A stretch of DNA of 64,000 nucleotides from Candidatus Heimdallarchaeota archaeon (GCA_019056785.1 DXJV01000100.1:1-64000); one strand, 5' to 3'; counted from the stretch's first letter, positions 47,979 through 51,195 are shown. Notes: generated by a model not told the origin, from the sequence alone. Translations and numbers: made by a program.

Positions 47979-48003
47979 GGACGTGTGGCTTAGTTTGGAT
48001 AGA
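47979..48003 (+). pseudogene. Isolated 5' piece (positions about 1-23) of an Arg-type tRNA
   Basis: GGACGTG TG GCTT AGTTTGGATA GA; TATA-like TTATAAA at 47941; acceptor strand complementary to 51185-51191. Confidence 0.85.
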
Positions 48004-48133
48004 TGTTTTTGAAAAGAAAAATCCTAACTTGAAAAAATTTGTTCATAACATTAGCAATTATAATTATTTGATTATAATGATTATCATGAGCTAAATTATC
48101 CAAAAAATAAATAAAAAAGTGTAAGAAAGTATT

Positions 48134-48568
48134 TTACTCTTTTATAGTTCCTTCTTCTTTTGCTTTTTCAATCAAAGGTAGTAAATCCATTGTTGGGATC
48201 ATTGGCGCATATTGTCCCCAGGTCCACTTATCTTTTTTGTTGCGAATCTTACCTATAATATAGTAACCAAAACGATAACTATCTTTGAATTTATATTTCG
48301 CTATTTGGTCCTTCTCACCTTCTGATTTTTGGTGTTCTAAACGTAAAATTTCAAACACTTTTTCAGGGTTATCGGTTTCTGTCATGTAAGTAGCAGCAAC
48401 CACTTTCAAGAAATGGTGTCCTTTTCGAGAAATATCTTTGACTTTGATCAATCGCCCTATTTCTTTTTGCTTTTTCCTTTCAATAAATTCTTCGGCTGTT
48501 TCAGCCACAATTATCACCGTAGGTAAAATAATTCTTAGATTAATAAAAATTATGTTACCAGAAATCAC
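48134..48568 (-). CDS. Hypothetical protein (element cargo)
   Basis: Plausible globular ORF (YRFGYYIIGK...WTWGQYAPMIP); start likely the internal GTG (VAETAEE). Confidence 0.7.
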   Translation of the reverse strand: MISGNIIFINLRIILPTVIIVAETAEEFIERKKQKEIGRLIKVKDISRKGHHFLKVVAATYMTETDNPEKVFEILRLEHQKSEGEKDQIAKYKFKDSYRFGYYIIGKIRNKKDKWTWGQYAPMIPTMDLLPLIEKAKEEGTIKE

Positions 48569-48987
48569 AATTAATTTAAAATAATCAGTTATTCGGTATT
48601 TTTATTTTGTTCTATTTGCTCTTCGGCTTTTTGTTCTTCCTTTACGATCATTCATCAGTTGGGAATATTCTCAGTCAGATTTTTTTAATTTGTATTTTTA
48701 TATTTACAAAATTCAAGAGAATACCCACAAATAAATAGAACTCGAAAAGTTTGAATAATTCCTTGAAAATCATTTTCATCTGTTATTTGTAGTATTTCAT
48801 CTATTTGTTTCAAAGTATATTGGTTGTTACATTTATCAGTCAAAAATTAATCACGACTTTTTATTCAATTTCTGGTACATGAAGTTATTTTAGATTGTTC
48901 GGACTTAACGTCTTTGGAGCAGACTCGCGTCGTTTCTATTCATCATCCAAGGTTCACAACGCTTCTTGTGTGAAGTTATTGATTCTC

Positions 48988-49155
48988 TCATTTATTATTC
49001 ATTTTTTTACAAATAAAGGAACTGTTTTCATAGGTGATGCCTATCGTATCGCCTTTTTTAATTCCCATCGCATTTACTATCTCAATTGGTATGGAGAGTT
49101 TGTATACTCCTGCATTATAAATTACTTTTCGTTCAAAAACTATTTTTCCTGACAT
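48988..49155 (-). CDS. AbrB/MazE/SpoVT family DNA-binding protein (55 aa)
   Basis: Manual translation MSGKIVFERKVIYNAGVYKLSIPIEIVNAMGIKKGDTIGITYENSSFICKKMNNK*; divergent from the nuclease gene; below the ORF cutoff. Confidence 0.85.
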   Translation of the reverse strand: MSGKIVFERKVIYNAGVYKLSIPIEIVNAMGIKKGDTIGITYENSSFICKKMNNK

Positions 49156-49244
49156 ATGCTTTTTCCCTATCTTTTCTTCTTGTGCAGAATATTTAAATAT
49201 TATCGTTTCTATACATAATATGTATAGTTTATGTACGGTAAATT

Positions 49245-50978
49245 ATGATGCTCAATCTATTATTCAGACAAGAAAAAAAACAAAGAGGTTCAAAAACAAT
49301 TATTTATAGAAATGGCACCATATTGTTGAAAAGCAAAACATCAAAATATGGAATGAACATTCCTAGTGGTTTATACAGGTGGAAAAAATTACCAAAAAAG
49401 AAAAGTGATGATAAATTAAAAGTAGTTGTTGATTTTTGGCATAAAAAAAACAAATTCGAAAGTGTACTTTGTATCATTTACCATAATAATTACTCTTGTT
49501 ATTTACGACCTGTAAATAATAAAAATCAAGAACAAAATATTTTACAACTTATGAAAAAGAATGCTATTTTAAAATGTGTAATCCCAAATAAAGTAAGTAA
49601 AGATGAACAGATTCCATCAACCGATTATTTAAAGCAAGCATTATTTTTAGCAGAGCAAGTTGTTTTACCTAACATTGATACCTTACAATTAGTTACTTTT
49701 GGCAGAATGCAAAATACAAAATACGAAATTTATTCAGATAATGAAATGAATCTTTACTTAAAATGCCGTGGTAAAATAAGTAGAAAGGGCGTTTTAATTT
49801 TATCTTCAGAAATTTCCCGTTATATACAAAATTGGTTTGAGAAAGAAATTTTATGTTTGTGTTCAATAAATGCTAAACCACCAATAGTTTTAACTTTAAC
49901 AACTCGCAAGAGAAACTCCACAAAAAAAATTTACAAAGAATTAAACCTTCCCTACTATGGAGATCCAAAAGAAGGAATAGTATATTTTACATCCAATGGT
50001 TTAGAATTAACTAAACAAGCAAGAAAGGACTTACAGTTGAAATCCCAACTAAGTAATAATGGTTATAATTTTCTTAATCTCAAATCTACTCTTAGACATG
50101 GGAAACATTACAACAGGGAGTTTGAACAACGAGTTAGAGATTTAATTGGTAGAGCTTTTAGAGATTACGAGGACACTATTCTTTTATCAGAAGTTGAGCT
50201 CACACTTACGGATGATGATTTTCCTTTAACTGGTTGGGATAAACATCGTTTTGATTCTTTTATTTATCATCAAGATGATTTTCATGATTATGTAGCTTTA
50301 ATTGAACTAAAGACATCTATCGAGCCTTCAAATAAATGTGGAATTATCGAGAGTGCAATTGCGAAGCTCTACCAGTTTAGAAAACGCATAAATAAAAAAA
50401 CTATTGTTCCAATCCTTATTATTAATGAAGATATATATTATCAAGGGGAAATAGCCACCAAAGCGTATGGGGACTTGTGTAACGTCATTCTAATTGGTCG
50501 AAAGGAATTAGTTGCCTTGATAGAAAACCCATCTCATCTTCATAAAAGAATACAAAACTACCTTGACACTCAAGGCTTTAAACAATCTCCCCCACCGATA
50601 AAAATGCGCGCAATCAATTCAGTATCCGAAGGTTCTGCATTTGAAGAAAAAATAAAGGACAAATTGCTAATTGAAGGTTACAAGGTCCAATCAAATGTGC
50701 TTTACAGAGTACAATCTAAACATATGGAAATTGACCATATAACAACTAAACAAGATGAGAAAATACTTGTTAGTTGTAAGGATCATAAAACAATAACTTC
50801 TGAATGGAAAATTCTCCTAAAATTATCTGACATTTTAAACATTATAGTTCTTAGAAAAGCATTACTTGGCTTTTCACAAGCTCGATTGTATGTGAAAGTT
50901 CATCCTAAAATAAAAGACAAGATCACACAAATTCTAAATCTTAAAGAAATTTCCGAAGTGGATGTTTTTATAGAATAA
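49245..50978 (+). CDS. Large protein with two PD-(D/E)XK nuclease-like domains
   Basis: EFEQRV...EVEL...RFDSFI...IELKT and GSAFEEKI...GYKVQSN...EIDHI...VSCKD; basic N-terminal region. Confidence 0.78.
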   Translation: MMLNLLFRQEKKQRGSKTIIYRNGTILLKSKTSKYGMNIPSGLYRWKKLPKKKSDDKLKVVVDFWHKKNKFESVLCIIYHNNYSCYLRPVNNKNQEQNILQLMKKNAILKCVIPNKVSKDEQIPSTDYLKQALFLAEQVVLPNIDTLQLVTFGRMQNTKYEIYSDNEMNLYLKCRGKISRKGVLILSSEISRYIQNWFEKEILCLCSINAKPPIVLTLTTRKRNSTKKIYKELNLPYYGDPKEGIVYFTSNGLELTKQARKDLQLKSQLSNNGYNFLNLKSTLRHGKHYNREFEQRVRDLIGRAFRDYEDTILLSEVELTLTDDDFPLTGWDKHRFDSFIYHQDDFHDYVALIELKTSIEPSNKCGIIESAIAKLYQFRKRINKKTIVPILIINEDIYYQGEIATKAYGDLCNVILIGRKELVALIENPSHLHKRIQNYLDTQGFKQSPPPIKMRAINSVSEGSAFEEKIKDKLLIEGYKVQSNVLYRVQSKHMEIDHITTKQDEKILVSCKDHKTITSEWKILLKLSDILNIIVLRKALLGFSQARLYVKVHPKIKDKITQILNLKEISEVDVFIE

Positions 50979-50980
50979 AG

Positions 50981-51089
50981 TGGCGGGTGCGGTCAGATTC
51001 GAACTGACGACTTCCTCTAACTGGAAATCCAAGCGCACCAGGAGATCACTCCGCAGGGAGGCGCATTATCCGTGCTATACTACGCACCC
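50981..51089 (-). tRNA. tRNA-Arg(GCG) with a 31-nt intron (51018-51048), CCA encoded
   Basis: Acceptor GGGTGCG/CGCACCC, G73, D-loop GGATA (A20), CCTCC-CT-GCG-GA-GGAGG after intron removal, GTCAG-TTCGAAT-CTGAC. Confidence 0.9.
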
Positions 51090-51171
51090 AATCAGTAATT
51101 GGAATTGATGTTATGTCCTTTTTAAAAATATGGATTCTAATTATAAATAAATTATTTGCAAATGTTCCTTT

Positions 51172-51195
51172 GTTCGAATCCGCTCACGTCCGCCA
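51172..51195 (+). pseudogene. Isolated 3' piece (positions about 53-76) of the same Arg-type tRNA as 47979-48003
   Basis: G TTCGAAT CCGCT CACGTCC G CCA followed by a T-tract; CACGTCC pairs 7/7 with GGACGTG. Confidence 0.88.

Follow-up and report, generated by a model that had tools for sequence, protein, structure and literature searches.

Transfer RNA (tRNA) genes are classic landing sites of mobile DNA, and those of archaea are unusually fragmented, the origin of this fragmentation being argued. The locus described here lies at positions 47979-51195 of a 64,000-nucleotide (nt) stretch of DNA from Candidatus Heimdallarchaeota archaeon (GCA_019056785.1, DXJV01000100.1:1-64000; referred to as the window): two pieces of a tRNA-Arg(GCG)-type gene enclose an AbrB-like gene, a predicted nuclease gene and a complete, inverted tRNA-Arg(GCG) gene. 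The window is taken from contig C65 of genome G000, a metagenome bin of 2.87 Mb in 102 contigs with 38.6% GC and 82.5% completeness. Related genomes are denoted G002-G007, G010 and G021, related loci or contigs carry L-numbers, and X1-X4 are public sequencing runs. The host is an Asgard-type archaeon, with the caveat that the NCBI labels of its relatives disagree: G005, a congener, and the metagenome-assembled genome behind L149, a more remote relative whose nuclease has 36% identity, are labelled Heimdallarchaeota, and G010 is labelled Bathyarchaeia. One 971-residue marker places this genome at 71-79% from all relatives; a second marker protein (29-33% identity, probably paralogues) was not used for relatedness.

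The 5' piece is located on the plus strand at 47979-48003 and covers positions 1 to 22/23 of the tRNA gene in the order acceptor strand GGACGTG, U8, D-stem GCTT, D-loop containing GGATA, then GA. The first-pass annotation, made from the sequence alone, had rightly recognized this piece and extended it to position 25; the tRNA likeness stops at position 22-23 (~48001). The 3' piece, on the same strand at 51172-51195, comprises positions 53-76 plus CCA (G53, T-loop TTCGAAT, CCGCT, CACGTCC, G73, CCA). A T-stem cannot be formed with the five bases preceding it, and the 12-19 nt before it resemble decayed positions 41-52 when aligned with G005 and G004, in which the piece starts at position 41. The acceptor strands of the two pieces form 7/7 Watson-Crick pairs, and the 5' piece contains the only plus-strand GGACGTG of the 74.8-kb contig. 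The GGATA D-loop is common to the three Arg tRNAs of the genome (GCG, CCU, UCU) and is not found in its other tRNAs.

The pieces (1-23 and 53-76) share no position, and the intact tRNA is encoded on the opposite strand. The window contains a single 5' piece and a single 3' piece, whereas relatives have arrays. No second copy of either piece exists in the 2.87-Mb assembly, and a middle piece (positions ~24-52) is found neither in the insert nor anywhere in the assembly, which is 82.5% complete. The assembly searches thus bear out the original description of a broken tRNA, with two same-strand pieces, fully pairing acceptor strands, a missing middle and an intact inner tRNA, and they yielded no intact or trans-spliceable copy of the broken tRNA elsewhere in the assembly. 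Since the genome is a metagenome bin of 102 contigs, chimeric junctions might be suspected. Both junctions are, however, spanned by contigs of independent runs (X1: 47600-48086 and 50839-51600; X3: 47785-48163 and 50435-51223), and the locus as observed is therefore real, as had been proposed; contigs of at least two other runs cross each junction, the same architecture recurs in G004, G005 and L170, and an assembly artefact is refuted. At position 51160, in an A-homopolymer 12 nt before the 3' piece, all four public runs have one A fewer than the window.

The intact tRNA-Arg(GCG) gene within the insert (the inner tRNA; minus strand, 50981-51089) consists of exon 1 (51089-51049), a 31-nt intron (51048-51018) and exon 2 (51017-50981) with encoded CCA. 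It scores 41.8 bits in Rfam against a cut-off of 29 and is also called by ARAGORN with introns allowed; introns must be allowed, as ARAGORN with its defaults (introns disallowed) finds zero tRNAs in the window. As judged from its sequence, it has the features of a tRNA-Arg(GCG): a predicted cloverleaf, the anticodon GCG, an Arg-type D-loop (A20), G73 and a predicted spliceable intron. Relative to the G005 copy, compensatory changes are seen in the acceptor and T stems. The expectation that it is the only Arg(GCG) gene of the genome was confirmed, as it is the sole such gene among 33 tRNA hits; a 'tRNA-Arg(gcg)' reported by ARAGORN at lowered threshold on contig C90 was discarded (impossible coordinates, a 225-nt 'intron'). 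A TATA-like promoter, type P_B', is located 30-42 nt upstream of its 5' end (51119-51131, minus strand); this promoter is kept in G004, G005, L147, L149 and L151 and resembles that of the intact gene in G007. The stop codon of the nuclease gene is separated from the 3' end of the inner tRNA by only 2 nt, as in G005, L146, L147 and L148, and by 7 nt in L149/L151. Most likely, this minus-strand, intron-bearing gene with its tight linkage to the AbrB-nuclease genes is the working copy. The tRNA genes of the genome are heavily interrupted in general (16 are called by ARAGORN with introns, 33 by Rfam) and nearly all encode CCA; in several, introns interrupt the D-arm or the anticodon stem (e.g., C64:3975, C3:11640, C49:24354), and long introns measure 46-74 nt. 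Genes for tRNA-Arg(UCG) and tRNA-Arg(CCG) were not found in the 82.5%-complete assembly.

The orphaned 5' piece has retained a promoter within the 45 bases upstream of it. This archaeal promoter, type P_A (47933-47950, plus strand; TATA at 47940-47947, 32-39 nt before the piece), has a core, ATAGTTTTATAAATT, that is nearly identical ahead of the intact tRNA-Arg(GCG) genes of G002, G003, G006 and L146 and also ahead of the 5' pieces of G005/G004 and L170. In G005/G004, the 3' piece runs from position 41, thus comprising the whole 3' exon, and resembles the 3' exon of the congeners' intact genes. Because of the promoter shared with intact genes of congeners and this 3' exon likeness, the assignment of the two pieces as ends of one tRNA-Arg(GCG)-type gene is supported at the level of sequence comparison, and the earlier placement of the broken gene in the Arg class holds. 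The intact counterparts in G002, G003 and G006 have the acceptor stem GGGTGTG/CACACCC, unlike the GGACGTG/CACGTCC of the broken gene; the 'empty site' predicted for related genomes was accordingly found in part, as intact Arg(GCG) genes are present in other species, albeit not with GGACGTG. A 12-nt motif, GCTCTTTTAGTT, which follows the 5' pieces of G004/G005 and resembles part of the G003/G006 intron, was rejected: an excess over chance in T-rich DNA is not demonstrable.

Two promoter-proximal and distal pieces with 7/7 pairing acceptor strands could also belong to a functional split or tri-split tRNA that is trans-spliced with a middle piece encoded elsewhere. The good promoter of the 5' piece is in line with this reading, as are the many genome introns at non-canonical positions and the failure to find tRNA-Arg(UCG) and tRNA-Arg(CCG) genes in the assembly. 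However, no middle exon exists anywhere in the assembly, and the flanks are AU-rich and contain no GC-rich complementary leader: their best duplex (-18.5 kcal/mol) is reached by 24/500 shuffles, and single-strand folds have z of about 0. Moreover, the extent of the 3' piece varies by species (41-76 versus 53-76), and ordinary intact genes of relatives share the promoter. A trans-spliced tRNA is close to refuted.

The nuclease gene (49245-50978, plus strand) encodes 577 residues, which are arranged in two N-terminal beta domains and two PD-(D/E)XK-type domains, the second being NERD-like. An alignment of 11 homologues reveals the invariant residues E316, D337, E354 and K356 in addition to E467, D497, S510 and C511, with K512 near-invariant. 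The AlphaFold model has a mean confidence (pLDDT) of 88.6, and Foldseek relates the nuclease domains to AF1548, MspJI, Cdn1 (Cdn1/Card1-like) and VC1899 (1y88, 4f0p, 9u49 and 1xmx; probability 0.97-1.0). The conserved catalytic motif and the predicted restriction-endonuclease-like fold place the protein in the PD-(D/E)XK/NERD superfamily. The tandem PD-(D/E)XK architecture that had been proposed rests on these conserved D..ExK motifs and fold matches; the Pfam NERD match has an E-value of only 0.05 in this copy, below the cut-off, and of 1.7e-8 in a paralogue. No match was obtained from PADLOC or from a sequence search of the PDB, and Foldseek matches of the whole model, mostly cupin-like and confined to the N-terminal beta domains at very low TM (template modelling) scores, were left uninterpreted.

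Divergent from the nuclease gene is a gene for a 55-residue AbrB/MazE-like (SpoVT-AbrB) protein (48988-49155, minus strand). Its match to Pfam MazE_antitoxin (PF04014; E 3.9e-5) scores 24.0 bits, just under the cut-off of 24.7; its homologues are found divergent beside nuclease paralogues at four other distinct loci (tRNA-Met in G003 and G021, a tRNA-Ala island at G002:C43, and G002:C13). A second AbrB-like gene, 52% identical to this copy, is located on the same contig outside the window (G000:C65:74150-74305). The remaining gene of the insert, ORF144 (144 residues; 48134-48568, minus strand), is an orphan: it has no Pfam or PADLOC match, and no tblastn match in any fetched locus or elsewhere in the genome. 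In relatives, its place is taken by a HEPN gene or other open reading frames (ORFs). In G005, a 288-residue HEPN protein is encoded downstream of the AbrB gene (L007 4359-5225) and matches the PADLOC candidate system PDC-S19 (8.5e-9); AbrB and HEPN of G005 could be a toxin-antitoxin-like pair.

Island cargo in general looks defence-like and includes HEPN, PIN, Schlafen/AlbA_2, PD-(D/E)XK and LAGLIDADG-like proteins. No ORF in this locus or in seven related islands matched an integrase or recombinase family, in agreement with the first-pass annotation. The genes between the pieces are most likely island cargo, i.e., a defence- or toxin-like module, rather than demonstrated mobility genes. A LAGLIDADG_3-like ORF of 485-562 residues recurs beside nuclease homologues (L147 4184-5839, L149 1-1456, L150 239-1870, L140 7243-8931), in two loci accompanied by a PDDEXK_1 gene, and may be a further conserved part of the nuclease unit.

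The same layout is observed in relatives. In G004/G005, the AbrB gene, the nuclease gene, the inverted inner tRNA and the 3' piece are preserved at 74% DNA identity over 2.3 kb; the promoter-bearing 5' piece is located 1.2 kb further left, and the whole bracket is nested in an outer 5' piece and further 3' pieces, with genes for a beta-propeller, a HEPN protein and membrane proteins between them. With the conserved ferredoxin/flavodoxin neighbour as reference, the module has opposite orientations as a whole in this genome and in G005. G002, G003 and G007 have an intact gene at the locus in the orientation of the inner tRNA, with downstream 3' pieces in G003 and G007. A distant metagenome contig of 26% GC, L170, repeats the bracket with an inverted inner tRNA, CACGTCC-type 3' pieces and the P_A core; its nuclease is cut down to the last ~100 codons, and its 5' piece is 24/25 identical to that of the window.

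A wider protein search retrieved nuclease homologues at 65, 54, 40 and 36% identity (overall range 35-68%), whereas a related-locus search with the nuclease found nothing in the genome-contig or metagenome-contig collections. In all nine further contigs with a close or distant homologue, the nuclease gene is followed at a gap of 2-7 nt by the opposite-strand tRNA-Arg(GCG), and several of them carry plus-strand 3' pieces, variously decayed, beyond the promoter of that tRNA. The starts of these pieces differ by lineage (41, 49, 53/54, or degenerate), which fits independent erosion. L148 has the nuclease and the inner tRNA, the latter with a P_A promoter, and no broken-tRNA pieces on the contig. 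The suggestion that nuclease homologues sit inside broken tRNAs is therefore true of G004, G005 and L170 and does not extend to L148. By its divergence, the nuclease/inner tRNA pair is old and not a recent invader.

Association with tRNA genes is common in the nuclease family, of which genomes of the genus carry multiple copies, with as many as 11 matches in one genome. At 7/16 loci in related genomes, the nuclease gene ends within ~150 nt of a tRNA gene (Arg, Met, Lys or Val), against a chance expectation of well under 1% per locus at this distance; two more of the 16 have tRNA-Asp at 1.4 kb, and one is inside an island bounded by tRNA-Ala pieces. Together with the nine further contigs, these counts uphold the earlier claim that the homologues are tRNA-linked. 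The paralogues adjoin tRNAs in either orientation, and some are inside islands far from a tRNA (L140). Arrays of same-strand tRNA 3' pieces, each piece bounding one or two accessory genes, are found in G005 (3), L147 (4), L167 (3) and at tRNA-Met of G003 (4). In the last of these (L135, G003:C89, 2600-11200), the AbrB gene, a nuclease paralogue and tRNA-Met(CAU) stand at the head; the four tRNA-Met 3' pieces of the array are all on one strand, differ in their acceptor strands and bound one gene each: Schlafen/AlbA_2, PIN, HEAT-Schlafen and a methyltransferase. At the tRNA-Met locus of G021 (L136), a 5-kb insert with the AbrB-nuclease module at its end separates a tRNA-Met 5' piece from an intact tRNA-Met on the same strand; this layout is ordinary 5'-end displacement. 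A direct tRNA repeat with a rebuilt same-strand tRNA is thus present at L136 (Met), and likewise at L146 (Arg), and absent in this window. That there is no duplication here, as the first-pass annotation had stressed, is correct for the window; the lack of one may, however, come from a second, later deletion, since L146 and L136 show the ordinary layout.

The opposite outcome is seen in L146, whose nuclease is 65% identical to that of the window. Its order is ferredoxin gene, 5' piece, ORF, nuclease gene, a pseudogene of the inner tRNA, P_A, and an intact plus-strand tRNA-Arg(GCG) gene with intron. The junction of its 5' piece is homologous to that of the outer 5' piece of G005, and the stretch of L146 comprising P_A and positions 1-21 matches the orphan 5' piece of G005 at 89% identity. 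The inverted copy is dead: positions 1-18 are missing, the anticodon GCG has become ACG and the acceptor is mutated. From this reciprocal case, the plus-strand and the inverted genes appear to be alternative survivors of a state holding both.

Two natural variants of this species lack the cassette. In one, 47914-50938 are replaced by 24 nt: an X4 contig (8758 nt, depth 24) joins 47913 to 50939, and the joint recurs at a loose end in X2. This variant is without the 5' piece, ORF144, the AbrB gene and the nuclease gene except for its last 40 bases. A second variant, metagenome contig L173, is without 48258-50842 and keeps the 5' piece; its flanks are 99.5% and 95.8% identical, and the joint is seen in X2. 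Both keep the inner tRNA and the 3' piece. A minus-strand tRNA without the cassette is what the first-pass annotation had itself named as evidence against its reading. No precise presence/absence polymorphism was found at the target: the two deletions are imprecise and leave the tRNA and a remnant of the nuclease ORF in place, and intact plus-strand genes occur only in other species.

These observations bear on the idea that the locus houses a selfish cassette, in which nuclease-driven homing breaks the resident tRNA-Arg and an immune replacement tRNA prevents loss by the host. The replacement itself is real, and the proximity of the nuclease family to tRNAs (within 150 nt at 7/16 loci and in all nine further contigs), the clustering of joints in the D-loop region (see below), the missing integrase and the conserved catalytic motifs of both nuclease domains would all suit such an element. 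Against it, the tRNA is kept while the nuclease cassette is repeatedly lost, which speaks against effective 'addiction' of the host: the cassette, AbrB gene and nuclease included, is unprotected, contrary to the claim that it is indispensable through its tRNA, and the nuclease of L170 is truncated. Furthermore, in L146 it is the cassette's tRNA that is dead, L148 has the nuclease/tRNA pair with no broken-tRNA pieces found, the pair is ancient at 35-68% protein identity, and the paralogues stand beside tRNAs in either orientation or deep in islands (L140). A selfish cassette of this kind is quite improbable. Gene replacement is supported by the sequences compared, nuclease-driven homing has no direct support, and the locus reads as one in which the host now seems to depend on the inner tRNA and not on the nuclease cassette.

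With modest confidence, we interpret the locus as a tRNA-Arg(GCG)-anchored, integrase-less insertion hotspot where two complete, oppositely oriented tRNA-Arg(GCG) genes were once present and one has since been lost. The joints are found at positions 22/23 (this window), 21 (G005 inner piece), 23-25 (G005 outer piece and L146, one event), 25 (L170) and 18/19 (pseudogene of the inner tRNA in L146), so that at least four independent cases fall between positions 18 and 25, too tight a cluster for random breakage. They also match the joint at 24/25 in tRNA-Thr of Caldiarchaeum (PMC3293823). Given this clustering and the ordinary displacement layout at G021 tRNA-Met, we infer from the observed anatomy, orthology, reciprocal outcomes and variants an order of events and a recombination mechanism as follows: DNA with accessory genes, the AbrB-nuclease module and a tRNA-Arg gene would have recombined into the resident tRNA-Arg(GCG) near the D-loop, at positions 18-25. 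The insertion would have orphaned the resident promoter and the first ~22 bases. Two working genes may then have coexisted, and with two working copies present, deletions would have been tolerated. Such deletions presumably took the rest of the front and the middle of the plus-strand gene and left its 3' end; in L146, the inverted gene would have been lost instead.

Several points weigh against this interpretation. No integrase or other recombinase is seen in this or any related island, and an inverted inner tRNA is not expected from ordinary tRNA-targeted integration. In its acceptor type, the inner tRNA agrees with the sister genus, and here it stands in ancestral orientation beside the ferredoxin gene, which makes the assignment of the 'resident' gene, and with it the proposed order of events, ambiguous. 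Inversion via the palindromic TTCGAA of the T-loop was considered and dropped, as the acceptor strands that it predicts do not pair. The pieces are also far better conserved than relics should be. The 3' piece is identical to that of G005 at 24/24 positions, compared with only 49% and 33% for its flanks and 77% for the working inner tRNA; similarly, the 5' piece (24/25) and the promoter core are kept between this window and L170, although the spacer and the downstream DNA are unrelated. An intact GGACGTG/CACGTCC gene is found neither in 83 class genomes nor in 185,579 species genomes nor in the metagenome collection.

In low-GC archaeal DNA, 12 occurrences of the CACGTCC 3' piece were found, all of them fragments; one array contains three, and CCA is often followed by one of two recurring 16-nt sequences. 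High-GC matches to a 19-nt pattern of the 3' piece were dismissed as chance (bacterial DNA, not tRNA-like). One CACGTCC 3' piece with a mutated T-stem (L009/L167 14457; G010:C16 410-432) follows a membrane-protein-like ORF, in genomic surroundings quite unlike those of this locus, and is identical in G010 and a metagenome contig. The conservation may be due to selection on the pieces, which could act as recombination sites or as small RNAs, to repeated transfer, or to functional alleles missing from the samples.

The first of these causes corresponds to a reading in which the pieces are maintained elements, either integron-like boundary sites for cassette exchange or small expressed RNAs. Conservation far above the flanks is what this reading predicts, and the 12 CACGTCC fragments with their recurring sequences and their array of three fit it well. 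So do the conserved promoter of the 5' piece (this window, G005, L170), which is kept with differing spacers and points into a convergent downstream gene, and the integrase-less cassette arrays bounded by tRNA pieces in relatives. On the other hand, L149 and L151 have a degenerate piece beside the inner tRNA, two changes are present in the G004 copy (one of them in CCA), one natural variant lives without the 5' piece, and the starts of the 3' piece vary from 41 to 54. Frequent transfer, or a recent displacement from functional alleles absent from the sampling, could also explain the conservation. Maintenance of the pieces for their own sake is fairly unlikely on this balance. A related, bolder proposal would make the AbrB-regulated double PD-(D/E)XK nuclease the mobility enzyme of integrase-less Asgard elements that target tRNA genes near the D-loop, carry a spare tRNA and recombine at conserved tRNA-derived end pieces; it is speculative and, for the time being, doubtful.

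The gene to the right of the locus (51210-52403, minus strand) encodes a 397-residue protein with one double-stranded-RNA-binding domain (dsRBD) in Pfam (E 2.8e-8, residues 150-219). It had been taken for RNase III, which cannot be upheld: at E <= 0.01, Pfam reveals the dsRBD and no trace of an RNase III domain. The relatives examined lack an orthologue at the corresponding position, and a related-locus search with the protein gave one unrelated bacterial match only. On the left, a gene for 445 residues has no orthologues and is therefore of no use for synteny, and a conserved flanking protein was uninformative as query (80 matches from many phyla). Further left, the product of 45288-46238 (minus strand) has a weak DDE-transposase match (E 0.009), which is probably spurious; the gene is a syntenic neighbour kept in G002, G003 and G007 at ~38% identity.

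The locus and its relatives form a rare series of stages: two complete head-to-head genes, inactivation of either of them, nested scars, and live deletion variants of one species. Replacement of a gene at a tRNA locus thereby becomes directly traceable. In addition, a conserved three-part unit of AbrB-like gene, double nuclease and tRNA is defined beside integrase-less cassette arrays in Asgard archaea, in which the double nuclease is a concrete candidate enzyme for a recombination or defence function. The conservation of tRNA-derived pieces without an intact parent gene hints at a role of their own. If the nuclease were indeed a mobility enzyme, tRNA genes would be repeatedly broken and replaced, with accessory cassettes stacked beside them.

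Among known systems, the locus appears by analogy most like tRNA-anchored cassette stacks and the disruption of a tRNA gene by mobile DNA in Caldiarchaeum subterraneum, where the population is heterogeneous at the locus (Sugahara et al. 2012, PMC3293823). Here as there, a tRNA 5' piece is followed by inserted DNA and then by another version of the same tRNA, with the break near 24/25 (PMC3293823). The Caldiarchaeum insert encodes a recombinase, and its new tRNA is on the same strand, rebuilt from the old 3' part (PMC3293823); the present locus, in contrast, shows no recombinase and retains a separate 3' piece, and its working tRNA is a complete gene in inverted orientation. With SSV1- and pNOB8-type elements (PMC3293823; Thermococcaceae tRNA fragments, PMC9897764), the locus has in common the tRNA target, orphan end pieces as scars and arrays of pieces in relatives. 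Unlike these elements, it lacks an integrase, and neither a directly repeated tRNA segment nor a rebuilt same-strand tRNA is present in the window. Separate pieces with matching acceptor strands, one of them promoter-bearing, are also known from the split and tri-split tRNAs of Nanoarchaeum, Caldivirga and Desulfurococcales (PMC3218864). In split tRNAs, however, every position is encoded, and the bulge-helix-bulge junction is accompanied by a complementary, GC-rich leader of 12-14 bp (Chan et al. 2011, PMC3218864). The locus under study lacks positions 24-52 as well as a leader of this kind.

SegB of phage T4 is a free-standing GIY-YIG homing endonuclease encoded in a tRNA gene region, for which cleavage is demonstrated; the region linked to it has been proposed to be inherited preferentially. 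As with SegB, a nuclease gene here stands beside tRNA genes; SegB, however, neither breaks a tRNA gene nor carries a replacement, and the nuclease of the present locus is a predicted PD-(D/E)XK/NERD enzyme that is often deleted. Integrons, including archaeal ones, use IntI and attC, tycheposons use integrases, and rhs/cdiA loci are arrays formed by 3'-end displacement. In all three, as in the islands described here, small accessory units are stacked at an anchor gene, each bounded by a spare anchor end. Unlike integrons and tycheposons, the present system is bounded by tRNA-Arg pieces of both 5' and 3' type and shows no recombinase. The locus is thus neither a split tRNA, nor a classical integrase island, nor a demonstrated homing element; its own features are a complete inverted spare tRNA tied to the AbrB-nuclease genes, reciprocal outcomes of inactivation, and conserved orphan pieces.

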